Sequence record: DRR723986_4815
DNA: 22,252 bases
Strand: one strand, 5' to 3'
The notes below the pieces were generated by a model that was given only the letters and a program-made list of their open reading frames with translations, was not told where the DNA came from and ran no database searches. This document shows, in pieces, positions 985-22,099 of this stretch. Made by a program: the position numbers and the translations under genes. Numbering within the stretch: position 1 is the first letter of the stretch; each line of letters starts with the position of its first letter.

Positions 985-1707
985 ATGAACGACGCAAGGC
1001 GAGAAAAGGGCAAGGCGACGCGGCAGTTGATACTCCAACGGGCAATCGAGCTGTTTCTTAGCGAAGGTTACTCCACAACCAGTATCGACCGTGTCGCCGA
1101 GGCTGCTGGGGTGACGAAGCCGACCGTCTACAGTCATTTCCAATCCAAGACGGGGTTATTCAAGGCCGCCGTCAATGCAAGTGCTGAGCAACGTGCTGGC
1201 AAACTGGGAGAACTGTTGCGAGTCACTGATGACGCCGCGCACGACTTGGAGCGATTCGGCGAGAAGTTTCTCGGGATCGTTTTGAGTCCGGAAGCAGACT
1301 CGTGGGACCGGATCGCAGCCGCCGAAGCTCGGACGCACCCCGAGGTTGGGCGGATGTTCTACGACGCTGGGCCGAGGCGGGTAAATGAAGCACTTGCTAA
1401 CTATATGAAGCAGCAAACTGAAGCAGGGTTGTTGTCCGTCGAATCACATCAGGAGGCTGCTGAGCTATTCATTGGGATGCTTCTGGGAATCGATCTGCTA
1501 AGAACCCGCATCGGTGCGCCGCCTCCCAACAAGTCGCAGATTCAACGGAAGTGCAAGACGGCGGTTGCAGCGTTTCTCGCGGCCTTTGGTCCGGCGGCTA
1601 GTTCGCCATCTCGATCCGCCCGTCTCGGTGCAGCAGGCAGTGAAGTAAACAGTGCAGCAGACAGCGCCAACTCGAAGAAGACCACAGACGAGGAGCACAA
1701 GCAATGA
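985..1707 (+). CDS. TetR/AcrR family transcriptional regulator
   Basis: N-terminal HTH ILQRAIELFLSEGYSTTSIDRVAEAAGVTKPTVYSHFQSKTGLF; C-terminal domain with AEARTHPEVGRMFYDAGP. Its stop overlaps the next start (ATGA, 1704-1707). Confidence 0.95.
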   Translation: MNDARREKGKATRQLILQRAIELFLSEGYSTTSIDRVAEAAGVTKPTVYSHFQSKTGLFKAAVNASAEQRAGKLGELLRVTDDAAHDLERFGEKFLGIVLSPEADSWDRIAAAEARTHPEVGRMFYDAGPRRVNEALANYMKQQTEAGLLSVESHQEAAELFIGMLLGIDLLRTRIGAPPPNKSQIQRKCKTAVAAFLAAFGPAASSPSRSARLGAAGSEVNSAADSANSKKTTDEEHKQ

Positions 1708-3011
1708 GCATGCGTTTGCAATTCCTGAGATCACGCCGCTTGCTCTGGTTGCCACCAGTCTTGGTCGGCGTGGGCGTTCTCGCTTTCTTCATCAGAGGTA
1801 AACGCGAGCTGCCAAGGAAAGAGATTCAAGAGGTCGCGGTACCAATTCGTGTGATCGAAATCAAGCCAAAGGACATTGTGCCGTCGGCAACGGGTTTCGG
1901 CTCGGCAAGCCCTTCTCGAAAGTGGAGTGCCGTAGCTGAGGTATCCGGAAGAGTTGTCGAAGTGAATCCCAGGTTGGAGTCGGGCAATGTCGTCCAGGCA
2001 GGTGAGCTGCTTTTTCGAATCGATCCGGATGACTACGCTTTGCAACTGAGTCAACGCGAAAGTGATCTTGCGGTTGCAAACGCTCAGTTGGCTGAAACCA
2101 TCGCCAGCGAAACGGCTGACCAGCGATCTCTCGAGATTGAAAAGAGCCTGTTGGCGGTCAGCCAGAAAGAGCTAGACCGCCAGCTTGGTTTGCGGGGGCA
2201 GCAGATTGTTTCGGACAGTGAGCTTGAGAACGCGAGAATGAACGTGCTAAAGCAGCAACAAGCGGTCCAACGCCTCAAGAATACTCTCAGTCTGTACGTA
2301 TCAAGGAAATCGTCAGCAGAGGCGCAGGTCAGGTTGGCCGAGAGTCGCGTCAAAGAAGCCCAACGCAACTTGGAGCGTACGCAGATTACGAGCCCCTACA
2401 CTGGGACGCTCGCGGGAGTTTCGGTCGAGTTGGGACAGGTCGTTGCACCGAACCAAAATCTCTTTGAATTGCACGATACAAGCACGGTTGAGGTGGAATC
2501 ACATTTTTCGATCTCGCAACTGCAGAGGTTGCTGCCCGACGGTAAGCACTACTCGGCCAATGACCAGCTCGCAAGCTGGCTACCGAAGCTGACGGCTGTA
2601 CTGACGACAGAAAGCGGTGGATCAAAGCAGGTTTTTCGAGGCCAGCCCATTCGCATCACCGAGTCTCTGGATACTCAGACTCGAACGCTGGGCGTTGTTG
2701 TGGCCGTGCAAAACTCATCGATGCAAGCTAACGCCGCGGATGTGCTGCGGGCAGGTACATTCTGCGAAGTAGAGTTGCGCTCTGAGAGTCGAGGTGGGCG
2801 GATTGCCGTGCCGCGATTGGCTCTCGATGGTGAGGCGGTCTATGAGGTGGACGAAGACAGTCGGTTGCATCGGCGACCCGTGTCGATCGAGAGTTTCATT
2901 GGTGACACGGCGGTGATTGCTTCTGGGTTGCAGGTTGGTCAGTGGATTGCCAGCCAGCCACCCGTGCCAGCAATCGAGGGAATGCTGGTTGCCCCCGAAG
3001 AGGCTCGATAG
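1704..3011 (+). CDS. RND efflux periplasmic adaptor (membrane fusion protein)
   Basis: N-terminal TM segment, lipoyl half-motifs (AEVSGRVVEV...GNVVQAGELLFRID and ITSPYTGTL...GQVV), long alpha-hairpin, DTQTRTL motif; directly upstream of an RND permease. Confidence 0.93.
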   Translation: MSMRLQFLRSRRLLWLPPVLVGVGVLAFFIRGKRELPRKEIQEVAVPIRVIEIKPKDIVPSATGFGSASPSRKWSAVAEVSGRVVEVNPRLESGNVVQAGELLFRIDPDDYALQLSQRESDLAVANAQLAETIASETADQRSLEIEKSLLAVSQKELDRQLGLRGQQIVSDSELENARMNVLKQQQAVQRLKNTLSLYVSRKSSAEAQVRLAESRVKEAQRNLERTQITSPYTGTLAGVSVELGQVVAPNQNLFELHDTSTVEVESHFSISQLQRLLPDGKHYSANDQLASWLPKLTAVLTTESGGSKQVFRGQPIRITESLDTQTRTLGVVVAVQNSSMQANAADVLRAGTFCEVELRSESRGGRIAVPRLALDGEAVYEVDEDSRLHRRPVSIESFIGDTAVIASGLQVGQWIASQPPVPAIEGMLVAPEEAR

Positions 3012-3044
3012 TCAATTTGCTGCTGGGTAGTCAATTTGCTGCTG
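3009..3044 (+). repeat. 17-bp tandem direct repeat TAGTCAATTTGCTGCTG (period 19)
   Basis: Exact copies at 3009-3025 and 3028-3044; the first copy begins with the TAG stop of the adaptor gene. Confidence 0.9.
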
Positions 3045-3101
3045 CAACAGCCCCAGAGCGATCGTTGCGTTTTGTCTTTCAACGTTCAATAGGAGCGTGC
3101 T

Positions 3102-6100
3102 GTGATTAGTTTCTTCGCTAAGCATCCGACCGCAGCAAATCTGCTGATGATCCTCATGCTCGCAGCAGGTCTTATGAGCGTTCGCTCACTACAGCGCGAG
3201 ACCTTCCCCGATGCCTTGCCGACAATCGTTCAAGTTCAGGTTGCTTTTCCTGGTGCAACCAGCAGTGAGGTTGAGGAGACCATTGTTCAGCGACTGGAGG
3301 ATGCACTCGACGGGGTCCAGTATCTGAAGGAACTCAAGAGCACAGCCGTTCAGTCCGTTGGTACGGTGACGCTAGAGATGGAGGATTCAGGTGACTACAA
3401 CGCTTTTCGCAACGAAATCGACAACGCAGTGGCGTCCATTGATGATTTCCCCGACGACTCCGAACCGCCCATAACGAGTCGACTGAACACGCGGCAGCCG
3501 GTCCTTGATGTTTTGGTTGTTGGCCCAATGACAAGCGTTAATCTGAAGGCTTACTGCGAAAGGCTGCGTGACAGGATGGTTGCGTTGCCCGACGTCAGCG
3601 AGGTCAACGTCGATGGCTTCTCGGATCACCTTCTGCGCGTCGAGCTATCTAGGGAAGCGATGCTGCGTTATGGCTTGAGCGCAACCGACGTCAGTACGGC
3701 GATTGCATCGCAGAGTCTCGATATGCCGGCTGGCAAGATTGATTCAGAACAATCCGTTTTGGTGCGAGTTCAAGAAAGCCGCAAGACTAGCAGGGCTTTG
3801 CGGGATCTAGTGGTGACCGGACGCCGCGGTGGAGCTGAGGTTCGACTCTCGGATATTGCCACGATCAAGGATGAGTTTGAGCTCGAGGAAGACAGGGTAT
3901 CCGTTGACGGCCAGCGAGCGGCAGTCCTGCGTGTTCGCAAAACTAAGCAAGAAGACACGATTCGCGTTGCAGATGCGGTCAAGCAAGTCGTCGAGGAAGA
4001 ACGTCTGCGACAACCACAGGTGCAGCTAAGCGTGATCAACGATCAGTCGTCGTTGGTGAGAGACCGCATATCCCTTTTGCTCAAGAACGGGTGGCAAGGC
4101 TGTCTCTTGGTGTTTGCGACCATGTGGCTATTCTTCAACGCACGACTGTCTTTCTGGGTAGTCGTCAGTCTGCCCGTTTCTTTCCTTGCCGCGTTTGCGT
4201 TTGTGCCTGCCACCGGGCTGACGATCAACATGCTGACCATGATCGGCCTGCTAATGGCCTTGGGGCTGTTGATGGACGACGGGATCGTCATTGCAGAGAA
4301 CATCGCGACGCGTCGTAGCCGGGGTGAGCCGGCTATGCAGGCAGCCGTCGAGGGAGTTCGCGAGGTTGGAAGTGGCGTCTTCAGTTCATTCCTGACAACA
4401 TGTAGCGTGCTGGGACCGCTCATTTTCTTAAACGGTGACATCGGGAAAGTGCTGAGGGTGTTGCCGATGATGCTGCTGCTTGTTCTGGCAACCAGTCTGG
4501 TCGAAGCGTTCTTGATCCTGCCTTCACACCTCGGGCATTCGCTCTCCGGTGATCCAAACAAACGTTCGCGGCTGAGGCTAGCTTGTGAAGCAGTCATTGA
4601 TCGTGGCCGGGACGCTTTGACGTACGTGGTAAGAATCGCAATCCGCCTACGTTACTTGACACTTGGCACCGTCGTGATGGTCTTCATGTGCACGATTGGC
4701 CTGATCGCAGGTGGCTTCGTTCGTTTTCAGGTCTTTCCGTCTCTTGAAGGTGACACCGTCGTGTCGCGTATCCTCTTGCCGCCTGGCACGCCACTTGAAC
4801 AAACACAAGAAGTGGTCGCTCGTGTCGAACAGGCTTTGCGGGAGACGAACGAGCACTTTCGCCCTCGGCAGCCCGATCAACAGGATTTAGTGAAGACAAC
4901 ATTCGTTCGCTATAACCAAAATACAGACGCCAACGAAGTAGGTAGCCATGTAGCTACCGTACAAGCTGACTTGCTTGGCACAGAACTGCGTGATGCATCG
5001 ATGGAAGAAGTCATCGGTTACTGGGAGAACGCAGTCGGGACGATTCCGAACGTTTTGAATCTAACTTTTGATGAGCCTTCAATTGGGCCCGCAGGAAGAG
5101 ATATTGAGCTCCTTCTGCAAGGGCTGCCGCTGGCGGAGTTAGATGAGGTAGCAGAGCAATTGAAAGGTTATTTCGCAACCTACGAGGGAATCTACAGTTT
5201 GACGGACGACCTCCGCAAAGGTCAGCTCGAGGTGCTGGTTTCCCTGCGAGCCGGCGCTGTGGGGCTGGGCATGACAGCCCAAGACCTGGGACGGCAACTA
5301 AGGGGCTCATTCCAAGGGCTGTTGAGTGATCAAATCCAAGTCGGTGATGAAGCCTACGATGTTGAAGTGAGATTCGAGGAAGCGGATCGCAATAGTATCA
5401 GTGACCTGGAGAACTATCGCGTGACGCTTCCCAGTGGCCTCGCTGTACCTCTGGGCGAGGTCGCGGTGCTTCAGCAGCGGCGCGGCTGGTCGCGCATTTC
5501 GAGAACAGATGGCAAACAGTCCGTGCTGGTCGTAGGCAACGTTGATTCGACAAAGTCAAACGCTGTTGCGGCGATCAATAATATGCGTCGAGAGTTGCTT
5601 CCAGAGCTCCGGCAAGAGTATCCTGGGCTCCAGGTCACGACGAAGGGTGCGAGCGAAACCGGTGCAGAGACGGGACGGTCCATGGGCACGGCCGCTTTGG
5701 TCGGATGTTTGGGTGTGTTCGTTATTCTGTCGTTTCAATTCCGGAGCTATGTCGAGCCCATTATTGTGATGGCGGCCATCCCGTTCGCATTTGTCGGAGT
5801 CGTTTGGGGGCACTTAGCCTATGGCATTAGTCTCAGCCTCCCGAGCATGATGGGCTATGCCTCGCTTGCAGGTATCGTGGTCAATGATTCGATTCTGTTG
5901 ATCTTGTTTTTGAAGTCGCAGGCGGACGAATCCGCGGACGTGGAACAGGCTGCCGCCGAAGCCAGTCGGCTGCGTTTCCGCGCGGTCATGATTACCTCGC
6001 TGACGACAATCGCAGGCCTGATGCCACTGCTGGCGGAGCAGAGTCTGCAAGCGCAAGTGTTGATTCCAATCGCCATCAGCATCTGTTTCGGTTTGATGGC

Positions 6101-6209
6101 GTCGACGGTGCTCGTGCTGGTCGTCCTTCCACCGATGTACGTACTGCTGAGCGATTTCGGTTTGACCAGCTTCCACCCTAAGGCGTCCGGGCAAAAAACT
6201 GCCGCCTAG
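3102..6209 (+). CDS. RND efflux transporter permease (AcrB/AcrD/AcrF family)
   Basis: 1035 aa, GTG start after AGGAG RBS. N-terminus MISFFAKHPTAANLLM...ETFP; TM4 GLLMDDGIVIAENI; C-terminal RFRAVMITSLTTIAGLMPL; two large periplasmic loops. Confidence 0.96.
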   Translation: MISFFAKHPTAANLLMILMLAAGLMSVRSLQRETFPDALPTIVQVQVAFPGATSSEVEETIVQRLEDALDGVQYLKELKSTAVQSVGTVTLEMEDSGDYNAFRNEIDNAVASIDDFPDDSEPPITSRLNTRQPVLDVLVVGPMTSVNLKAYCERLRDRMVALPDVSEVNVDGFSDHLLRVELSREAMLRYGLSATDVSTAIASQSLDMPAGKIDSEQSVLVRVQESRKTSRALRDLVVTGRRGGAEVRLSDIATIKDEFELEEDRVSVDGQRAAVLRVRKTKQEDTIRVADAVKQVVEEERLRQPQVQLSVINDQSSLVRDRISLLLKNGWQGCLLVFATMWLFFNARLSFWVVVSLPVSFLAAFAFVPATGLTINMLTMIGLLMALGLLMDDGIVIAENIATRRSRGEPAMQAAVEGVREVGSGVFSSFLTTCSVLGPLIFLNGDIGKVLRVLPMMLLLVLATSLVEAFLILPSHLGHSLSGDPNKRSRLRLACEAVIDRGRDALTYVVRIAIRLRYLTLGTVVMVFMCTIGLIAGGFVRFQVFPSLEGDTVVSRILLPPGTPLEQTQEVVARVEQALRETNEHFRPRQPDQQDLVKTTFVRYNQNTDANEVGSHVATVQADLLGTELRDASMEEVIGYWENAVGTIPNVLNLTFDEPSIGPAGRDIELLLQGLPLAELDEVAEQLKGYFATYEGIYSLTDDLRKGQLEVLVSLRAGAVGLGMTAQDLGRQLRGSFQGLLSDQIQVGDEAYDVEVRFEEADRNSISDLENYRVTLPSGLAVPLGEVAVLQQRRGWSRISRTDGKQSVLVVGNVDSTKSNAVAAINNMRRELLPELRQEYPGLQVTTKGASETGAETGRSMGTAALVGCLGVFVILSFQFRSYVEPIIVMAAIPFAFVGVVWGHLAYGISLSLPSMMGYASLAGIVVNDSILLILFLKSQADESADVEQAAAEASRLRFRAVMITSLTTIAGLMPLLAEQSLQAQVLIPIAISICFGLMASTVLVLVVLPPMYVLLSDFGLTSFHPKASGQKTAA

Positions 6210-14099: not shown

Positions 14100-15233
14100 T
14101 TACTCGGGCAGTTCGACCAGAATCAAGACGGTCGAAATCTCTTGTGAGCCAGGAGCAGCCATCGTCGGAATCATCGGGGGCTCGCGTTGCTGCTTCGCAA
14201 CTAGCTTTTCCTGAGCCTGAAAGCGGGGGAGCTTTTCGACGATGCGACCATCTTCTGAGATCGCAAGCGGAGCTGCGAAGCTGTCCGATGCTGCAAAGCG
14301 TTTTCCGGTTGAACGAGCAACCTTCTCCATCAACCGCGTCTGAGGGTTGTCGACCGCAAAATTGTACTGGGCCTCGGGGAAGTTCTCGACGTCCGCGAAG
14401 ATTCGCTGGAAGGCAGTGTCGATTGCCATCGATGGAGCGCGAACAAAATACAAGCTGCTGCGGCTGGTTGGTGCGTCCGTTACGATGTACTCACTGTCCT
14501 GCAGTGCTTCTTCTACATCGCCACTGGCAACAATGGGTTGTTCGGCCTGAATGCCCGCATCGCCCAAAATCTGTTGAAGTACCCCAGACTCAAGTGCAGC
14601 GTCTGTGGGCTTAACGTGCAGAACCATGACCATCGAAATGGTCCATTGCAATTCACTGACGTAAGTCGTCTCTTTGGGTACCTCTGGCAATTCGGGTGCC
14701 TCTGGCAAGACGTCAATAACGGACGGATCAACCTCAGGCGTCCCATCTGACGAGTCTGCCAGCATCCCTTGGTCGATATCGCCAATAGGATCTGTACTTG
14801 AGGCGTCGGGGTCGACGACAGCAATGTCGCCGCCGCCAGTATCTTGTGTTTCAGGCAGTAAAAAGACGGCGATCGCCAAGCAAGCTGCCAGAGCAGCAAT
14901 GGCCGCGGCAACCTTTTTCCACGAGCCATTTGCCGCTTGAGAGCTAGAGTCGTCGATGATCACCGACGCTACTGGCTTATCAGATTCCGAGATCTCATCC
15001 AGCAATTGGAGCGTAAAGTCCGAGGAGAGAGCGGATCTTGAGGAAGTGACATCCTTCAGCTCGCCTAGCAATTCCTGGCCGTGCCGCAGCGCAGCAAGGT
15101 AATCTCTGGCTTCGCTACCGGCGGAATCCTGTTGGGAGAGCAGCGCTTCCACCGCGACGGACTCATGCTCATCGAGCATCCCATCGAGGTAGCCGCTAAG
15201 CAGCTCTTCAAGTTTTTCGCCATCGAGTGGCAT
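14100..15233 (-). CDS. Anti-sigma-factor-like single-pass membrane protein
   Basis: From ATG 15233 (GGGAG upstream) it is 377 aa. N-terminal EELLSGYLDGMLDEHESVAVEALL resembles the ASD/zf-HC2 first helices without HxxxCxxC; then TM WKKVAAAIAALAACLAIAVFLL, an acidic Pro-rich linker and a C-terminal extracytoplasmic domain. Confidence 0.7.
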   Translation of the reverse strand: MPLDGEKLEELLSGYLDGMLDEHESVAVEALLSQQDSAGSEARDYLAALRHGQELLGELKDVTSSRSALSSDFTLQLLDEISESDKPVASVIIDDSSSQAANGSWKKVAAAIAALAACLAIAVFLLPETQDTGGGDIAVVDPDASSTDPIGDIDQGMLADSSDGTPEVDPSVIDVLPEAPELPEVPKETTYVSELQWTISMVMVLHVKPTDAALESGVLQQILGDAGIQAEQPIVASGDVEEALQDSEYIVTDAPTSRSSLYFVRAPSMAIDTAFQRIFADVENFPEAQYNFAVDNPQTRLMEKVARSTGKRFAASDSFAAPLAISEDGRIVEKLPRFQAQEKLVAKQQREPPMIPTMAAPGSQEISTVLILVELPE

Positions 15234-15346
15234 TCCCAAACTCCCGTTCGCCGAAGTCACAATGCATATGAGGTTGCATTGTGAAGGTGCTGGCCATGCT
15301 TGCCGCCCGTGTGCAGCAATTAAATCATGGATTCGAAGCACGCTGT

Positions 15347-15375
15347 TCAGATGATACGCAACTTGGCGAAGTTCC
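15347..15375 (-). promoter_or_regulatory. Candidate ECF sigma factor promoter (GGAACTT-N17-TCTGA)
   Basis: The minus strand reads GGAACTT cgccaagttgcgtatca TCTGA, about 115 bp upstream of the anti-sigma-like ATG. It resembles the sigmaE-type GAACTT-N16-TCTGA pattern with a spacer one base longer. Confidence 0.45.
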
Positions 15376-15647
15376 CGAAACATCTACTTTAGCGGATTAT
15401 TTTGAGAACTTTGCACCAAAACGAGAGTACTTTGCGTGACAACGGCTCTCAAGCCGCCCCTGAAGACGATTCGTGACGTTCTGTCGCCATAAGATTTTGC
15501 GCAAGCCCGCACAAATGTGAGGTACTGATTGCCTCTGTGGAGGGGGCTCGATGGCTAAGAGAGCCACGGCTCGCCGGCAATCATTGGATTCGCTCGGTAC
15601 TGGCGAGTCCAACTTCGGCACAACTCTGCCAGTGAGCCAAGAGAGGG

Positions 15648-15763
15648 CTGGAACCCACGTTGGGTCCCAGGCATGGAGAGCTCCAGCCATGGAGAGCCAT
15701 GGAGTCTGCTGAACTCATCCAGAGTTCAGCCTAGAGATGGTCCGCAAAAAAGATGGTCCGCAA
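15648..15763. repeat. Cluster of hairpins and short direct repeats downstream of the FHA-EAL gene (possible terminator region)
   Basis: CTGGAACCCA-CGT-TGGGTCCCAG (15648-15670, 1 mismatch); CATGGAG three times (15672-15704); perfect GCTGAACTC-ATCCA-GAGTTCAGC (15708-15730); AGATGGTCCGCAA twice (15735-15747, 15751-15763). Confidence 0.7.
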
Positions 15764-15776
15764 GCTCGGAATGCAG

Positions 15777-16919
15777 CTATACGATTTTGTCGACGGGCTC
15801 GGGATGTCCAAACGCGTATCCCTGAGCGGTTAGGAAGCCTAGTTCTTTGCATACTTCAGCTTCCTCTGGTCGTTCGACTCCCTCGGCCAGAGCGTTGATG
15901 CCGAGGTCGAGGGCCATTTGCAGCAACGACTTAATCATCTTCTGGCGGCTCTCGGTCGCTTTATCGATGCCGCGAACCAACGAAATGTCGAACTTGAGGA
16001 AGTCCGGTGGAGCGGCGACGAGTTCGGAAAGTCGGGCTTGCCCTGCACCGAAATCGTCGTAGGCCAAGAGGATCTGCAGGTCCGTTAGGCTAGACTTCAA
16101 TCGCTGCATTTCACTGGGTTCAGTGATAGCAGCCTCGTGCACCTCGAGCACAATGGGACGCTCCGGAGCGAGGTCGCGCAGCGTTGTGAGAGATTCTATT
16201 AGACCTTCTTGCCGTACTTCCAACGGATGCGTGTTCACAAACATCAGATTGCTTGACGGGATCTGAGCAGCTTGACGGACGCCTTCCCAGCGTAGCATTC
16301 GGCTGAGCTGCACTTCCATATTTAGCCGTGAAGCGGCGCTGAACATCGCGCGAGGCGATTCTAAGCCAAAGAGGCGGCTACGGGCCAAAACCTCATAGCC
16401 CAGCAGCTCCGAATTCTGCAGGTCGACGACAGGTTGATAGTTTGGACAAACGAGGCGATCAACCATCAAGCGGTCAAATTGCATGAGAGCGTAGGCGGAA
16501 TCGCAAACGTCTTCCGCCATCGTCGCGCAAGTTTTTACCAACGGCTCGCAGTGCACCCGATAGACATCGTCGGCAAACTGAACGAGATCGGTCTCCTTGA
16601 GCTGGACCGGTTGGCTGATACGGACGCCGTTTACAAAGGTGCCGTTGGTGCTCTCTAAATCGCGGATCCAAAGAGCATCGCGATGGACACGGAGTTCGGC
16701 GTGGACACCTGAGATCGTCTTTCGGTTGATCTGCAGCGCGCAACCGGCTTTGCGTCCAACCGTAAACGGCATGGACGCCGCCAGTTCGACTTCGGATTGG
16801 TCGGCGCACGCGATCAGCAGCCAGTTTAGCGATTCTGCCTTAGCGGGCTGCTGTTCGTCTATCTCATTGGACAAAGGTGATTGCATTGGATATGGCGTTC
16901 CCCGCGTCGGCGGAGACAC
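15777..16919 (-). CDS. FHA domain + EAL domain c-di-GMP phosphodiesterase
   Basis: FHA: FTVGR...ISGVHAEL...IRDLESTNGTFVNG. EAL: YQPVV, YEVLAR, FVN, LEVHE, DDFGAG, LKFD, AEGVE, QGYAFGHP. Start is GTG 16919 (GAGGA upstream) or ATG 16886. Confidence 0.92.
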   Translation of the reverse strand: MSPPTRGTPYPMQSPLSNEIDEQQPAKAESLNWLLIACADQSEVELAASMPFTVGRKAGCALQINRKTISGVHAELRVHRDALWIRDLESTNGTFVNGVRISQPVQLKETDLVQFADDVYRVHCEPLVKTCATMAEDVCDSAYALMQFDRLMVDRLVCPNYQPVVDLQNSELLGYEVLARSRLFGLESPRAMFSAASRLNMEVQLSRMLRWEGVRQAAQIPSSNLMFVNTHPLEVRQEGLIESLTTLRDLAPERPIVLEVHEAAITEPSEMQRLKSSLTDLQILLAYDDFGAGQARLSELVAAPPDFLKFDISLVRGIDKATESRQKMIKSLLQMALDLGINALAEGVERPEEAEVCKELGFLTAQGYAFGHPEPVDKIV

Positions 16920-17119
16920 GCTTCCTCATCTGTTTCGAGTTCATGAGCTACTGCCCAGCTCGGGTGCACTTTGACGCATTCGAAGTCTCCGTCCACCTGC
17001 GCTGCCACGCAGGGTAAGACATCTTTGCGACTTATCAAACTCATTCAGATGCGTTGATTGGGAAGTTAATTTCCGGCACACAACGCATCGCAGGAAGTCT
17101 AGGTCACGTTTCAGGCTCC

Positions 17120-17143
17120 GGCGAACAATTGCGCAAGTTCGCC
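17120..17143. promoter_or_regulatory. Imperfect palindrome in the divergent promoter region
   Basis: GGCGAAC-AA-TTGCGCAA-GTTCGCC: 7-bp arms around a self-complementary TTGCGCAA, roughly midway between the divergent starts. Confidence 0.35.
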
Positions 17144-17374
17144 AAATTGGTTCCTTTGGTGGTCGGCTGAGGTCAAAGGGGTAGTCAGCAGATCGGATAA
17201 CCGGAACAGGCGGCGCAATCCTGGCAATCGCGACTGTCTTCACGGCTAGCCGTTGTCGCGGTGGTTTCGACGCAGCTCATTTTCCCCTGTAGCGTTTTCG
17301 AATCCTAAGTTTTGTTGCGAGTTTCTCTAATCTTAGAAGCACTTTTCCCGACGCCACGCGACCAAGAGCAGCCT

Positions 17375-18889
17375 ATGACTGGTCTACTGCCGAATTCATC
17401 CGCCAACGTACAGACCTCGGACGTACCCGCGTTCTTGGGGGAAGATCAGTACTGGCCTGATGAACCACGAAGCATTGACGACACCGGATTGAGTCCTACT
17501 CTCGTCGATTCGATCATTTGTCAGATCTTGAGCGCACGAGGAAACTTGCCTGGGCGGTCATTGGCTGATGCGGTTGGCCTACCATTCGGAATCGTCGAAA
17601 TCCGCTTGAGTGATTTGCGAAGCCGACAGATCCTTACCCACACTCGTAGTGCGCCGCTAAACGATTTTTACTACGGTCTAACTGAAGCAGGCCACAATCG
17701 AACGCTTCAGCTTCAGAAGTCAATGATCTACACCGGGCCTGCTCCGGTTCCACTAGCAGACTATCTTGTCAGCGTCGAAGCTCAAGCGAGTCAGTACGAT
17801 CCGATCGAGCGATCCGACTTGGTGGATGCTCTCAACGGCATTTCCTACGATCCGGCTTGGCTTGATTTTCTCGGCCCCGCAGTGAACTCGACCGGCGGCA
17901 TCTTTCTGTACGGAGCTCCTGGTAACGGGAAAACCACTCTAGCGAAGTGCCTAACGGCCTTGAAGGGCAAGCACATCTGGATTCCTCATGCTGTTATCGA
18001 CGACGGCAACATTATCAAGGTCTTCGACGCTGCTTATCATACTCCCGCATCCGAGGATGCTGGCGACAGTCTGGTGGATTCAAGTAACGTTGATCGACGA
18101 TGGATCCGCGTCGAACGCCCAACCGTAATCGTTGGTGGAGAGCTTACGCTCGACAATTTAGAGATTCGGCATGACGCGCGAAGCAATACCTGCGAAGCAC
18201 CCCTGCAAGTCAAAAGCAACTGCGGCAGCCTGCTCGTCGATGACTTTGGGCGTCAGCGAGTTGCACCGGAAGACCTGCTGAATCGATGGATTATTCCACT
18301 GGAAAATCGGCTCGACTACCTGACACTCCCAACAGGTAAAAAGATCAGCGTGCCCTTTGAGCAGACGGTGATATTCTCGACAAACCTCCTACCGCAAGAC
18401 CTTGTGGATGAGGCGTTCTTGCGGCGAGTTCCATTCAAGATTGAAATTGCCGATCCGTCGCCTCAGGAGTTCATGGTCATCTTCCAGCGTGCTTGTTCGC
18501 AGATGGGATTTCCTTGGCGGCCTGACGTCGTCAAGCAATTGATTGCTGGGTTCTTCCTCGGTAGGAAACGCCCACTTCGAAGGTGCTATGCACGGGACCT
18601 ACTCAAGCAGGTCAAAGCGTACTGCGTTTATCAAGGCGAACCCTGCGATTTACGCATTGAGTATCTGCAACATGCCTGCAGAAACTACTTTGGCACACTC
18701 GAGATTGAAACAGCGACAGCGCCGATGCAGTCTGCTACGCCGGTTCAACCCCCTGCTCCGCCAAAACCTCAACCAGTTCCTCAGGTTGCTCCAGCGGCGT
18801 CACCCGCCCAGAACGCCGCCGCAGTTGTGCCACCAGGGTCCGGGAATGCTGATCAGCCACCCCCATCCGGAACAGTCGTACTCCAATAA
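17375..18889 (+). CDS. AAA+ ATPase with N-terminal winged-helix-like region and Pro/Ala/Gln-rich tail
   Basis: From ATG 17375 it is 504 aa: Walker A GAPGNGKT (17912-17935), Walker B LLVDDFG, LLNRWIIPLE, pre-sensor-1 hairpin YLTLPTGKKISVPF, sensor-1 IFSTN, Arg finger AFLRRVP. The N-terminal GRSLADAVGLPFGIVEIRLSDL...YGLTEAG resembles a wHTH. Confidence 0.88.
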   Translation: MTGLLPNSSANVQTSDVPAFLGEDQYWPDEPRSIDDTGLSPTLVDSIICQILSARGNLPGRSLADAVGLPFGIVEIRLSDLRSRQILTHTRSAPLNDFYYGLTEAGHNRTLQLQKSMIYTGPAPVPLADYLVSVEAQASQYDPIERSDLVDALNGISYDPAWLDFLGPAVNSTGGIFLYGAPGNGKTTLAKCLTALKGKHIWIPHAVIDDGNIIKVFDAAYHTPASEDAGDSLVDSSNVDRRWIRVERPTVIVGGELTLDNLEIRHDARSNTCEAPLQVKSNCGSLLVDDFGRQRVAPEDLLNRWIIPLENRLDYLTLPTGKKISVPFEQTVIFSTNLLPQDLVDEAFLRRVPFKIEIADPSPQEFMVIFQRACSQMGFPWRPDVVKQLIAGFFLGRKRPLRRCYARDLLKQVKAYCVYQGEPCDLRIEYLQHACRNYFGTLEIETATAPMQSATPVQPPAPPKPQPVPQVAPAASPAQNAAAVVPPGSGNADQPPPSGTVVLQ

Positions 18890-18961
18890 TCCAGTTTGCC
18901 GCTCAGCGACTCACAGAGTTGTGACCTGAGCTGGCAAGAATGCAGATGCCGAGAATAGAAG

Positions 18962-21900
18962 ATGTTAGAACCAGGCCACGAACCTATCACTGGATATCGC
19001 CTCCGCAGCCGTTTGGGAGCTGGTGGCTACGGGGAAGTTTGGTTGTGCGATGCGCCTGGAGGTTTGCAGAAAGCGATTAAATTCATCTTTGGAGCGGTCA
19101 CGGGCCCGCAGGCAACCAAAGAGCTGCGCAGCTTGGAGAGGATTTCTAAGGTCAATCATCCGTTCCTGCTTTCCATCGAGCGTGTTGAAGTCGTTGGTGA
19201 CCAACTGCTCATCGTTACCGAACTGGCCGAACATAGTTTGGAAGACCAATTGGCTGCGTGTCGCAAAGCCGGTAGGAGTGGACTGCCCAGACGCGACCTT
19301 CTGCAATATATGCGCGACGCTGCAGAAGCACTCGACTTCTTGGCTACGGAGCACTCTCTCCAGCATTTGGATGTTAAGCCAGCGAACCTGCTTGTTCTTT
19401 CCAAACGGATTAAGGTTGCGGACTTCGGGCTTTTGAAGGATCTGCAAGCGGTTCAGCAGTCTTGCATTGGTGGGATGACGCCAGCGTACACGGCTCCGGA
19501 AGTATTTGACGGCTGCCCTGACGTCAGGTCCGATCAATACTCGTTAGCCATCACATACATCGAACTTCTCACGGGCGGCCTGCCCTTTTCGGGATCAACA
19601 CTGGCCGCTCTTGCCAAACAGCACTTGAACGAAGCACCCAACCTGGACATGCTCCCACCGGGCGATCGTGACATCGTTGCTCGTGCGATGTTGAAGCATC
19701 CATTGGATCGCTTTGCGAATTGTCGTCAGTTCATTGATCAACTGATGAACGTTAAAGCGACATTGATGCCCGTTTCGTTGGATCCGCAGACCAATAGTGA
19801 AACTTCGAGCGAAGCGACAACAACGGCAGTCACGGCGGATAGCAACGATTTGTTCCAGCCTGTTGTCGCTGTTGGTCGTGAGTTTCAAATTGCCGATGAA
19901 GTAGCTGTGCCGACGCTTACGATCGGAGTTGGCGGTGTTGGCGGCAGTGCACTGTCCGACCTTAGGCTTCGCCAAATCGACGCTTCAAGGTCGCAGTTCT
20001 TGTATATCGATACCGATCTAGACGACATCAAACGCTATACATCAAATCTTGACGAAGATGATCCGCGGCGAATCCCAGAAGATGACGTGCTGCATCTGCG
20101 GCTTGGCACGCCAGACGAATATCGTAGGCTTGCACCGGAAAGATTTAAGAGCATTTCGCGGCGCTGGCTTTACAACGTCCCTCGCAGTGGACGCACCGAA
20201 GGAATTCGACCGCTAGCGCTGTTGTCACTTTTGCACTTTCAAGACTCCGTTGCGAGACGCATTCAGGAGAGTCTTGTCCGCCTTCAGTCGGTGGCAAACG
20301 GGCAGACTCTTCGCGTGCAGTTGTTATCGTCTCTGCACGGCGCGACCGGTGGTGGAACGTTGGCAGCTCTAGCGTTGCTCATTCAGGACGTCGCTGAAGC
20401 AAGTGGCGTTACCGTTGAGGTTGAAGCCTTGGTGACGGCCGCTGAATCCTCGCACAGCGGGCCCGCAAAAATGGCTCCCGCAGCGGCACTATCCACACTG
20501 GCTGAGTTGAGCACCTACTTCGATTCCCAGACGGTGCATCCGCCGTTGTTCAGCGTGCTCCCACAGTCGGCCACTCGTCCCGCGCGAGCTAGTTCACCGC
20601 TAAGTCGAGTTGTTGCGGCACACGGGGGCTGTCTGGGTGACGCGACCGACCTGCATCGCGCAGCGGAAAAGCTCGCCGATTTGGCTGAGTTTCGATTGCA
20701 GTATCCAGCATGGAATAGCGATAGCGATCCCAACCAGTGGTTCACAACCGCCGAACGCATCAAGCTTGAATTGCCGAGTCAGCACTCGTCGACCAGCCTA
20801 GCAGTGCTGTGCGTTCTCCGCGGTCTCGCTCAGTTCCGCGACTCGCTTACAGGCAAATCGCAGCCGTCACCTGAGGCATCCGAGCAGATCGTACAAGCGC
20901 TCAAGGGTCGTCTCTATCCAACGCTGGCTCTAGGCGGTGACGATGCTGAATCCGCCGACACGCTAAGGCGGCTGATCGAAGCAAACAATGTGCCCGATGG
21001 CGTCCAGGAGCAGTCTGCACTGATCGGTGAAGCCGTCGAGAAGTCGCATGCGATTGTCTATGAAGCTCTGTTGAGCAATCGTGCAACCTGGTCCCAGGTG
21101 CAGGAAACGCTCGATCAAGTCGTGCAAGAACTTTCTATTGCATCAGTATCACCGGACAGCACTTTGGAGTCTCTTCGCGCCTTTGAGGAATACGCTGCAG
21201 ATGATGCCCTAACCGCCGTCAGGGAGAAAGCTTCGCAACGACTTGCTGCGCTCTCTGAAGCTGTCGAAGAACACAGCCAGGTTTTCCGCTCCACTGGGAG
21301 TGAGTATGCCAGCCGAGTTGGTGAGTGTGGCAAGCAGATTGCGAGCAAGATCCCAGCCAAGCAAGGCCGGGCGCTCTCGGCTTCGGTAGCGGAAAGCCGC
21401 CCGCTGAGTGAAATGGTGACGATCGTTGCCGAGCATTTGCAAAGCGTGCTGACGCAGTCGTTGCCTATTTCGGCGGCAGCCGGAGCAATTGAAACGACCC
21501 AGCGGACCGTGCAGCCGCTGCGAGAATTCAATGTCTCCGGGCTTCTGAGTGAAGCTGTTGTGCAGATCAAAAAGCTGAGTGGGAGATTTGAGATAACGCT
21601 GAATGACTCCGACGCACAGGCGACCAGTCACGCAGCCAAGATCGTTGAAAAGCTTGATTTAGCCATTCCACCGCTGGCACGCTGCGGCGGTAAAGTAACT
21701 CGGCAGGTTGCCGGACGCAGTCGAGAGATTGTGCGGCTAAAGCAACTGATCGAAAACGGCGGTGGCAAGCACGTTAGCAAGAGCACCAGCTTCGTGCATT
21801 GGGAGCATCACCTGTGCAAGAATTCAAACTGGATTCTTACTCAAGCAACAGAGCTACCTCTTGAGTTACTCGTACGGAACCTGTGGCGGCCAGCGGCGGA

Positions 21901-22099
21901 TACGCTGAAGTTGGCCGAGAAACTGCGATCGCGCGTGGACATACGCTGGCCAAGTATCGACGAGATGCTCACGCGGCAACCAGACCGTCAAGACTCAAGT
22001 GAATCTGCTGCTCAGTCGACGGACAACTCAGCCGCAATAAGCCCGTTTCCGCCAGTAGCCGTGGAGCTAAGTCAAACCGTTGTACCGGCAAGCCAATAG
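18962..22099 (+). CDS. Ser/Thr protein kinase fused to a tubulin/FtsZ-like (Tubulin_2-type) domain
   Basis: Kinase (aa ~1-262): LGAGGYGEVW, KAIK, HLDVKPANLL, DFG, YTAPE, SDQYSL. Tubulin-like part: TIGVGGVGG (T1, 19919-19945), YIDTD (T2, ~20003-20017), RTEGIRPLA (T3 region), SLHGATGGG (T4, 20330-20356). A long helical C-terminus follows. Confidence 0.85.
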   Translation: MLEPGHEPITGYRLRSRLGAGGYGEVWLCDAPGGLQKAIKFIFGAVTGPQATKELRSLERISKVNHPFLLSIERVEVVGDQLLIVTELAEHSLEDQLAACRKAGRSGLPRRDLLQYMRDAAEALDFLATEHSLQHLDVKPANLLVLSKRIKVADFGLLKDLQAVQQSCIGGMTPAYTAPEVFDGCPDVRSDQYSLAITYIELLTGGLPFSGSTLAALAKQHLNEAPNLDMLPPGDRDIVARAMLKHPLDRFANCRQFIDQLMNVKATLMPVSLDPQTNSETSSEATTTAVTADSNDLFQPVVAVGREFQIADEVAVPTLTIGVGGVGGSALSDLRLRQIDASRSQFLYIDTDLDDIKRYTSNLDEDDPRRIPEDDVLHLRLGTPDEYRRLAPERFKSISRRWLYNVPRSGRTEGIRPLALLSLLHFQDSVARRIQESLVRLQSVANGQTLRVQLLSSLHGATGGGTLAALALLIQDVAEASGVTVEVEALVTAAESSHSGPAKMAPAAALSTLAELSTYFDSQTVHPPLFSVLPQSATRPARASSPLSRVVAAHGGCLGDATDLHRAAEKLADLAEFRLQYPAWNSDSDPNQWFTTAERIKLELPSQHSSTSLAVLCVLRGLAQFRDSLTGKSQPSPEASEQIVQALKGRLYPTLALGGDDAESADTLRRLIEANNVPDGVQEQSALIGEAVEKSHAIVYEALLSNRATWSQVQETLDQVVQELSIASVSPDSTLESLRAFEEYAADDALTAVREKASQRLAALSEAVEEHSQVFRSTGSEYASRVGECGKQIASKIPAKQGRALSASVAESRPLSEMVTIVAEHLQSVLTQSLPISAAAGAIETTQRTVQPLREFNVSGLLSEAVVQIKKLSGRFEITLNDSDAQATSHAAKIVEKLDLAIPPLARCGGKVTRQVAGRSREIVRLKQLIENGGGKHVSKSTSFVHWEHHLCKNSNWILTQATELPLELLVRNLWRPAADTLKLAEKLRSRVDIRWPSIDEMLTRQPDRQDSSESAAQSTDNSAAISPFPPVAVELSQTVVPASQ

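Follow-up and report, generated by a model that had tools for sequence, protein, structure and literature searches.

A conserved three-gene locus of Pirellulales encoding a kinase-tubulin fusion, an FHA-EAL protein, and a winged-helix AAA+ ATPase, a candidate signaling module

We analyzed a 22,252-nucleotide stretch of DNA from sequence record DRR723986_4815 (the window herein), in which three neighboring genes encode an FHA-EAL protein, a winged helix-turn-helix (wHTH) AAA+ ATPase, and a protein that joins a Hanks-type Ser/Thr kinase to a tubulin-like domain of the FtsZl1 (Tubulin_2) family (the kinase-tubulin protein). These three genes are kept together and have diverged together in dozens of genomes. 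With moderate confidence, we read them as one conserved functional module of Pirellulales that is built on a cytoplasmic FtsZl1 protein with its own Hanks-type kinase. The fusion of kinase and tubulin-like domain has already been published; the module and its two states with respect to cyclic di-GMP (c-di-GMP), one with an intact and one with a degenerate EAL domain, appear to be undescribed.

The three genes are kept together and diverge together

The comparison comprised 45 kinase-tubulin loci (the window, L001, L002, L035, L036, L152 to L171, and L172 to L191), mostly from other Pirellulales genomes. L001, from a Pirellulaceae metagenome-assembled genome (MAG), and L002, from a Planctomycetales MAG, came from searching species-representative genomes with the kinase-tubulin protein as the query. 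Forty of the ∼313 matches from a search of the order were examined, namely, all 16 further full-length matches and then 4 plus 20 matches that cover the tubulin domain only. Neighboring genes were detected by tblastn with parts of the three window proteins, and 8 kb on each side was covered for 54 matches to the ATPase.

The first-pass annotation of this DNA had proposed that the three genes form a linked unit, an idea that would fall if they were unlinked in other genomes; the linkage holds. An N-terminal kinase is part of all 45 tubulin-like genes, 44 of which have an adjoining FHA gene, and in the exception, L165, the contig begins 540 bp before the ATPase gene. An orthologous ATPase gene is adjacent in 42 loci; the exceptions are L167, where the contig ends, and L168 and L176, where none lies within the DNA examined. 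In the genome with L167, a different contig carries a module-type ATPase, and in that with L168, one lies at a distance of 165 kb.

Gene order varies among the loci, with five arrangements in total, two of which are rarer forms. In type I, represented by the window, the FHA-EAL gene and the pair of ATPase and kinase-tubulin genes are divergently oriented. In type II, the order is ATPase, a REC-GGDEF-CBS-like gene on the opposite strand, an FHA-x gene, and kinase-tubulin, and in type III, the ATPase, kinase-tubulin, and FHA-EAL genes all lie on one strand. The window's arrangement is found in both L001 and L002, with kinase-tubulin proteins that are 68% and 34% identical to that of the window, respectively, and the flanks of L002 differ. 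When the open reading frames (ORFs) of all 45 loci were clustered, only the three module families and the REC-GGDEF-CBS-like gene recurred across clades, and the window's flanking genes recurred only in the close relative L001.

Phylogenetic trees (IQ-TREE for the ATPase and FastTree for the kinase-tubulin and FHA proteins; L172, L176, and L191, which have apparent frameshifts, were left out) recovered the same groups for all three families. The window's clade of 8 had supports of 100/100 for the ATPase, 100 for the kinase-tubulin protein, and 98 for the FHA protein (7 rows), and a clade of 9 same-strand loci had supports of 91/90, 100, and 99, respectively. One genome, G680, holds two modules of different arrangement, L180 and L181. 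The ATPase and kinase-tubulin proteins of L181 group with the degenerate-EAL clade and its FHA-EAL protein with catalytically intact clades, which suggests that the FHA-EAL gene was exchanged between modules. At L172, L176, L180, and L191, genes of the module are broken up across several frames, through frameshifts, pseudogenization, or assembly error.

The ATPase family occurs in 29 of 401 genomes sampled across the phylum (27 strongly), with 1 to 3 scored copies each. Among the 54 ATPase matches, L035 and L036 (ATPases 45 to 54% identical) were the only newly found ATPase genes beside kinase-tubulin and FHA genes; at ∼50 loci of ATPase paralogs (26 to 46% identical), tblastn gave no match to a kinase-tubulin, FHA, or EAL neighbor. 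Likewise, at 12 loci of canonical, unfused Tubulin_2 proteins (PF13809, phylum sample), tblastn gave no match to a kinase, FHA, EAL, or module ATPase. The association is therefore specific to the orthologs.

The PF13809 probe exceeded its cutoff in 15 of the 401 phylum genomes, and only 3 kinase-fused members were found there by tblastn. A profile of the fused proteins' own tubulin part was needed, and we built it from the tubulin and C-terminal parts of five fused proteins. Of 401 genomes sampled from the order to which G001 (the genome of L001) belongs, which is Pirellulales (the record of L001 is Pirellulaceae), 186 matched this profile, ∼180 of them at E values of <1e-37, and most of the matching genomes carry at least two matches. 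In the phylum-wide sample, which was drawn differently so that the two fractions are not comparable, only 3 of 401 genomes had strong matches, and the module is therefore taken as seen only in the order-level sample.

Domains and conserved residues of the three proteins

The kinase domain of the kinase-tubulin protein matched Pkinase with 96.7 bits (Pfam). In all 25 orthologs aligned, the G-loop, the catalytic Lys, the αC Glu, the HLD..N catalytic loop, and the APE motif are present, and the DFG motif is found in 24, with one DYG. The H-L-D of the catalytic loop, kept in 25 of 25, makes this a non-RD kinase; in such kinases, phosphorylation of the activation loop is usually not required. The linker that follows is 53 to 134 residues long in the 25 orthologs and has 12 to 25 Ser/Thr residues in each, with Thr-containing motifs common within clades.

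Tubulin_2 (PF13809) matched residues 319 to 522 with 44.7 bits against a cutoff of 27 (orthologs, 47.5 to 88.4 bits), and the T1 (GxGGxG) and T4 glycine motifs are kept in 25 of 25 orthologs. An AlphaFold2 (AF2) model of residues 301 to 1045 (window positions 19862 to 22096; mean predicted local distance difference test score [pLDDT], 81.4) matched CetZ best (3zid_B; Z score, 24.0; root mean square deviation [rmsd], 3.4; 288 residues aligned [VIA]). Tubulins, BtubA, FtsZ, TubZ, and PhuZ followed at Z scores of 16.8 to 21.2, and the next, unrelated rows were at 8 to 9. Foldseek matches (E values of 2e-4 and weaker, ∼305 to 370 columns) agreed with a tubulin fold, and the modeled protein thus has the two-domain tubulin fold. 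The alignments to tubulin-family structures span model residues 15 to 684-715, with only ∼290 to 335 residues aligned. These alignment ranges suggest a helical insertion of ∼270 residues after the core helix, inside the tubulin fold. Because the alignments reach residues 684 to 715 with few residues aligned, the conserved C-terminal alpha/beta domain (model residues 604 to 705) seems to replace the tubulin C-terminal domain.

Phospho-threonine produced by Hanks kinases is the ligand of FHA domains. In the FHA-EAL protein, the FHA domain (PF00498) scored 71 bits in Pfam against a cutoff of 20.7, and the EAL domain (PF00563) scored 143.9 bits against a cutoff of 31.3. We counted residues over 42 FHA proteins of at least 300 amino acids, having dropped L165 (no gene) and the fragments L172 and L176. 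The R, S, H, and N that we take to be the phospho-threonine pocket are present in 41 of the 42, the window included. In the EAL domain, we followed ten positions that we assume to be the catalytic and ligand residues, E, R, N, E, E, D, D, K, E, and Q (ExLxR, N, ExxE, DD, K, E, and Q). The loci split by the presence of a REC-GGDEF-CBS-like neighbor. Where it is absent (18 of 18 loci, among them the window), every one of the ten is kept, and where it is present (24 of 24 loci), at least 4 of the 10 are replaced. L181 was assigned to the loci without the neighbor by hand, its sole match being a weak one to an unrelated 865-amino-acid protein.

The REC-GGDEF-CBS-like gene was observed at L035, L036, L152 to L163, L167, L168, L173, L175, L176, L178 to L180, L183, L186, and L188, and in many loci it lies between the ATPase and FHA genes (e.g., L036:9740-11239, minus strand). 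The GG[DE]EF signature is absent in all 16 of its products that were aligned. A degenerate EAL domain paired with a degenerate GGDEF domain looks like a pair of enzymes that has been turned into sensors or scaffolds.

For the ATPase, all Pfam and NCBIfam matches were below cutoffs and confined to the P-loop (AAA_16, 19.8 bits; AAA, 17.7 bits). The family is large, with E values of ≤1e-5 for at least 7995 of 8000 scored candidates; they are named "AAA family ATPase" and have no Pfam domain. A homolog in Aureliella helgolandensis is 66% identical. In an alignment of 49 orthologs and paralogs, the Walker A motif (residues 201 to 208), the Walker B DD (310 and 311), sensor 1 (N358), R371/R372, and R428 (sensor 2) are invariant or nearly so. 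The AF2 model (pLDDT, 82.5; >90 over the winged helix) matched >40 AAA+ structures at Z scores of 12.3 to 17.1 (Foldseek probability of 1.00; E values of 1e-12 to 1e-9). The protein is thus AAA+ by its motifs and its predicted fold, not by a curated profile. The top folds were an uncharacterized archaeal protein of Pyrococcus furiosus (8p49_A; Z score, 17.1; 280 residues aligned) and LonB (4zpx_B; Z score, 16.6). Other AAA+ clades followed at Z scores of 12 to 15, with ClpB types and bacterial enhancer-binding protein (bEBP) types among the best folds.

The N-terminal domain of the model superposes on a MarR-operator complex (5h3r_A; Z score, 12.9; rmsd, 2.5; 77 residues), on HpaR (7el2_A; 12.6; 0.8; 67 residues), and on 5hsm_A (12.6; 1.4; 71 residues) and 2rdp_A (12.6; 1.8; 74 residues). 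Its predicted fold is thus that of a MarR-type winged helix, and DNA binding is putative. The Pro-rich tail is absent from the paralogs, which end near residue 463. At the other end, residues 1 to 44 (window positions 17312 to 17440) are predicted to be disordered, and the start is uncertain, being either the TTG or an ATG at codon 22.

The first-pass annotation had pointed to AAA+ ATPases that remodel tubulin or FtsZ polymers in other systems, and a specific likeness to tubulin-severing ATPases did not emerge. The phmmer match to spastin (E value, 0.0025) covered Walker A and a 60-residue stretch, its Foldseek rank was 44, and Vps4 had a Z score of 12.5 against 17.1 for the top fold. A spastin-like reading is unsupported; the best folds are the archaeal hexamer and the LonB, ClpB, and bEBP types. 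Because no such likeness emerged and a MarR-like winged helix is present, remodeling of a polymer is only one option for this protein.

Three further observations concern the ATPase family at large. In a paralog subfamily (L074 to L085; 12 to 13 loci), the ATPase gene invariably has a gene for a 231-amino-acid protein upstream and a TPR gene downstream, both on its own strand (e.g., L081:7073-7768 and L081:9584-10549), which would be a second conserved context of the family. In 7 loci, a gene for a 552-amino-acid Ser/Thr kinase lies ∼3 kb from an unlinked ATPase paralog (e.g., L068:10953-12611), a hint at a broader tie between this family and Ser/Thr kinases. A protein atlas shows look-alike clusters of ATPases in other phyla, which serve as a lead only.

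None of the three window proteins has a 19-residue span with a Kyte-Doolittle hydropathy of >1.6, so that all three look cytoplasmic. Their ORFs were found where the first-pass annotation had placed them (Table 1), and its 72-bp gap between the ATPase stop codon and the kinase-tubulin start codon is correct. Its divergent spacer of ∼455 bp falls within the uncertainty of the start codons, which gives 392 bp for the longest ORFs and ∼488 bp with the first ATGs. Lying 72 bp apart on the same strand, the ATPase and kinase-tubulin genes are probably cotranscribed.

In the divergent spacer, counts of sigma-70-like sites and terminators were at or below the shuffle expectation, and one 12-nucleotide pair of each kind of repeat was read as chance. 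Across the FHA-ATPase spacers of the 8 loci with the window's gene order, no k-mer occurred in more than 3 loci, and no candidate operator was found. An ORF on the minus strand of the spacer (16941 to 17243) was taken as spurious, with no Pfam match and no tblastn match in the 44 other loci.

The G+C content of the module (0.53 to 0.58) is even throughout and equals that of the remainder of the window. The other genes of the window are ordinary, encoding TsaE, an aminotransferase, an epimerase, a GT2 glycosyltransferase, a KAS III enzyme, a thioredoxin-TPR protein, EamA, and an M24 peptidase. A TetR-family regulator, an HlyD-type membrane fusion protein, and an AcrB-type RND pump in a row form an ordinary efflux operon (positions 985 to 6209, plus strand). 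Downstream of the FHA-EAL gene, with gaps of 86 and 13 bp, lie a 97-amino-acid ORF and a gene for a 427-amino-acid protein with a weak zf-HC2 (anti-sigma-like) match (positions 14100 to 15690, minus strand). Both recur only in L001 and are therefore probably not members of the module.

TABLE 1 Features of the three-gene locus, with positions in the window
Feature	Position	Strand	Basis
FHA-EAL gene, 380 amino acids, phospho-threonine reader fused to a c-di-GMP phosphodiesterase (predicted)	15777..16919	-	ORF; Pfam; ortholog adjoining in 44/45 loci
EAL domain, residues 156-373, catalytic residues intact	15801..16454	-	Pfam; ten positions checked
FHA domain, residues 53-115	16575..16763	-	Pfam; pocket residues present
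Divergent intergenic region between FHA-EAL and ATPase genes	16920..17311	.	ORF coordinates
wHTH-AAA+ ATPase gene, 525 amino acids	17312..18889	+	ORF; alignment; AF2 model; ortholog adjoining in 42/45 loci
MarR-like winged helix-turn-helix, residues 61-139 (predicted)	17492..17728	+	AF2 model; fold matches
AAA+ core, residues 171-462, with conserved beta-rich insert (∼221-300) between Walker A and Walker B	17822..18697	+	Motifs; folds
Pro-rich tail of the ATPase, residues 465-525, predicted disordered	18704..18886	+	pLDDT mostly <50
Ser/Thr kinase-FtsZl1 (Tubulin_2) fusion gene, 1045 amino acids	18962..22099	+	ORF; Pfam
Hanks-type kinase domain, residues 12-264, non-RD (H-L-D)	18995..19753	+	Pfam; motifs
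Ser/Thr-rich linker, 53 residues, 12 Ser/Thr, 7 Thr	19754..19912	+	Motif alignment of 25 orthologs
Tubulin/FtsZ-like GTPase domain (predicted)	19904..20851	+	Pfam Tubulin_2; glycine motifs; AF2 model; folds
Long helical region, model residues 337-600	20870..21661	+	Model secondary structure; weak helical matches, Z 8-9
C-terminal alpha/beta domain, invariant G, A, R, D, and W positions	21671..21976	+	Alignment; model

A proposed mechanism and its alternatives

As judged from their sequences, the kinase, the FHA pocket, the EAL active site, the tubulin-type glycine motifs, and the AAA+ motifs of the window are all intact. The mechanism that we infer for them is a self-phosphorylated scaffold on which the FHA domain docks, the most economical reading and one to which we give about an even chance of being right. 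Nucleotide-dependent self-association of the tubulin-like domain would gather the non-RD kinase domains, which would then phosphorylate threonines of the Ser/Thr-rich linker or of a partner protein. The FHA-EAL protein, whose gene is transcribed divergently, would dock on these phospho-threonines through its FHA domain, and docking would place an active c-di-GMP phosphodiesterase at the scaffold or switch it on there. The wHTH-AAA+ ATPase would be an obligate third partner, acting in assembly or disassembly of the scaffold, in tethering to DNA through its MarR-like domain, or as a regulator, roles between which the data do not choose. In the sister clades, which have a degenerate EAL domain and have added a degenerate REC-GGDEF-CBS protein, the output would be this degenerate c-di-GMP-type pair. 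Because the EAL domain is degenerate there, the invariant logic would be the kinase, FHA docking on a tubulin-like scaffold, and the ATPase, with c-di-GMP hydrolysis as an output only in clades like that of the window.

Several observations weigh against this reading of one module or narrow it. The 24 matches that cover the tubulin domain only were picked mainly for long contigs, and the loci are thus a nonrandom sample. The congruence of the trees may partly be that of the species phylogeny. L168 and L176 have intact surroundings and no adjacent ATPase gene, so there is no strict requirement for the ATPase in cis. It is also better conserved than the kinase-tubulin protein, with identities to the window of 89% against 68% in L001 (G001) and 65 to 67% against 34% in L002 (G002), and each genome has 2 to 3 unlinked paralogs of it. 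This stronger conservation and these unlinked paralogs suggest that the ATPase also has duties outside the module. In the T4 motif of the tubulin-like domain, usually G-G-T-G-S-G, position 2 is Ala in the window and in L001. Finally, with a degenerate EAL domain in 24 of 42 loci and a degenerate GGDEF signature in 16 of 16, c-di-GMP turnover cannot be the family-wide function. The putative lowering of local c-di-GMP in the earlier proposal consequently does not extend to the family as its theme.

Two other explanations give the winged helix a larger part, and we consider each of them unlikely. By analogy with TubR-TubZ plasmid partition, the locus could encode a DNA-linked cytomotive system, in which the winged helix would couple DNA, either the chromosome or a specific site, to tubulin-like polymers for DNA positioning or bud-directed transport in these FtsZ-less, budding bacteria, with the kinase, FHA, and EAL domains as regulators. 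The superposition of the ATPase N-terminal domain on MarR-family domains, including one in an operator complex, is consistent with this, and the domain is kept across the 49 homologs; a common fold, however, is no proof of DNA binding, and no conserved intergenic DNA motif was found in the spacers (at most 3 of 8 loci share any k-mer). As matches of the tubulin-like part, TubZ, PhuZ, and FtsZ are roughly equal (Z scores of 17 to 19), and in types I and III the kinase-tubulin gene comes immediately after the ATPase gene. The unlinked ATPase paralogs adjoin genes for TPR proteins or other kinases, not tubulin-like genes. Planctomycetota are described as lacking FtsZ in PMC11032199; even so, a module with matches in just 186 of 401 genomes sampled from the order would be no universal device for segregation or division.

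Alternatively, the wHTH-AAA+ protein could be a transcriptional regulator that is set by the kinase and by c-di-GMP, with the tubulin-like domain as a nucleotide-sensing or oligomerization part rather than a cytoskeletal polymer. The MarR-like fold would fit such a role, and the AAA+ core resembles bEBPs, including the c-di-GMP-binding FleQ and VpsR (Z scores of 13.5 to 14.5). Many other AAA+ clades match at least equally well, the rows being tied within ∼1 Z unit, and no sigma-54 interaction family was significant in Pfam. The divergence of a regulator-like gene from the FHA-EAL gene is a common layout of autoregulated pairs, but it is confined to the window's arrangement, and no conserved operator-like motif was found in the spacers. 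The kinase ∼3 kb from the ATPase gene in seven paralog loci would also agree with control by phosphorylation.

An anti-phage or other conflict system made of a kinase and an NTPase is very unlikely. The kinase domain matched mad6 (133.6 bits) and PD-T4-6 (129.7 bits) in PADLOC and MAD6 in NCBIfam (E value, 2e-20), and the P-loop of the ATPase touched the IetA and IteA models; the former matches are limited to the generic kinase domain, and the latter extend over ∼20 to 25 residues around Walker A, with no significant stretches. The FHA-EAL protein has no PADLOC match. The PADLOC matches, being to a generic kinase domain and a P-loop only, thus do not bear out a defense system, and a module that is common (186 of 401 genomes, often with at least two matches), evolves congruently like a vertically inherited unit, and sits among housekeeping genes with the local G+C content does not resemble one. 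Some adjacency would be expected by chance in planctomycete genomes, which are rich in kinases and signaling proteins. That three unrelated signaling genes are mere neighbors here is hardly credible, however, and is refuted by the adjacency kept across the 45 loci (44 for FHA and 42 for the ATPase) despite differing flanks and rearranged gene order.

Beyond the scaffold with FHA docking, a bolder form of the proposal is conceivable, which we regard as quite unlikely. The kinase-tubulin protein would be a true GTP-driven polymer or polar organizer in the FtsZ-less, budding Pirellulales; its state would be written as phospho-threonine, read by the FHA-EAL protein or by degenerate c-di-GMP-sensing relatives, and coupled to DNA by the winged-helix AAA+ motor. 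If true, this would be a tubulin-based switch of the cell cycle, of the bud site, or from swimmer to sessile life, and an operon-sized unit would connect cytoskeleton and chromosome with Ser/Thr phosphorylation and c-di-GMP.

FtsZl1/Tubulin_2 proteins have had no assigned function since their description in 2010, and how Planctomycetota divide and establish polarity without FtsZ is an open question. With the module, an orphan tubulin-like family gains known signaling partners for which there are clear assays, namely, a kinase, FHA and EAL domains, and an AAA+ ATPase. The split between an active EAL domain and a degenerate EAL domain with a degenerate GGDEF partner offers a natural experiment on the passage from c-di-GMP enzyme to sensor or scaffold. 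In the literature where we looked, the conserved module, the ATPase, the FHA link, the GGDEF-like partner, and the prevalence are undescribed, although supplementary tables may list neighbors.

Comparison with known systems

The FtsZl1 (Tubulin_2) family was defined by Makarova and Koonin in 2010 (PMC2875224), whose main text reports an N-terminal protein kinase domain in four planctomycete members. The fusion recurs in the available text of PMC9871819 and PMC11032199, the latter giving the tubulin-like domain as the commonest partner domain of cytoplasmic Ser/Thr kinases in Planctomycetota. The window protein belongs to the same family, with a Pfam match above the cutoff. The FtsZl1 operons in the main text of PMC2875224 contain genes for vWA, OmpA-like, GTPase, kinase, and membrane proteins, with a predicted role in membrane remodeling; the vWA, OmpA-like, GTPase, and membrane partners are absent from the window module. 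For Pirellula staleyi, a reviewer's comment in that paper points to a diguanylate phosphodiesterase as a neighbor of the FtsZl1 gene. The first-pass annotation had taken an association of FtsZl proteins with FHA proteins as established, a claim that finds no footing in the main text of PMC2875224, where "FHA" occurs 0 times (its supplements lay outside this check). That main text likewise makes no mention of a wHTH-AAA+ ATPase, an FHA domain, or a REC-GGDEF-CBS partner.

The nearest folds of the ATPase, the archaeal LonB-type proteins and P. furiosus Q8U0N8 (4zpx and 8p49; Foldseek E values of 6e-10 for the former and 1e-12 for the latter), likewise have an insertion between Walker A and Walker B. 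In contrast to LonB-type proteins, the window ATPase has no protease domain, its insert is soluble and beta-rich rather than a membrane anchor, and the identity is 12 to 15%. As far as the available text goes, Q8U0N8/8P49 was found in the literature only in the preprint of a homo-oligomer atlas.

The TubZ-TubR-tubC system serves in plasmid partition and places a divergent tubulin-like GTPase beside a winged-helix protein. The window likewise combines a tubulin-like GTPase with a winged helix, and TubZ structures match the window model at Z scores of 17.9 to 19.2. However, the winged helix of the window is fused to an AAA+ core, the tubulin-like protein carries a kinase, and the locus, which is widespread, lies on the chromosome. 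Centromere-like repeats were found neither in the window spacer nor as sequences shared across the 8 spacers.

In the threonine phosphorylation pathway of type VI secretion, docking on a phospho-threonine triggers assembly of a machine with the kinase PpkA, Fha1, and the AAA+ protein ClpV, and the genes for these three (kinase, FHA scaffold, and AAA+ ATPase) likewise lie together. The window module differs in that it has no secretion genes, its ATPase is a single AAA+ with a wHTH and is not ClpV-like, and the output would be a c-di-GMP enzyme. The TagH/VI_FHA model matched the window FHA domain far below its cutoff (E value, 2e-7).

In mycobacteria, PknA and PknB, FtsZ, and FipA (FhaB) control division, with the FHA protein reading phospho-threonines made by the kinase. 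The NCBIfam model of FhaB/FipA matched the window FHA domain at an E value of 7e-14, below the cutoff. Unlike the mycobacterial system, the window has the kinase and the tubulin-like domain in one polypeptide, an FHA domain fused to EAL, and an additional wHTH-AAA+ ATPase; its group of organisms lacks FtsZ, and any role of the module in division would be hypothetical. What the two systems have in common is a Hanks-type kinase, a GTPase of the tubulin superfamily, and an FHA reader.

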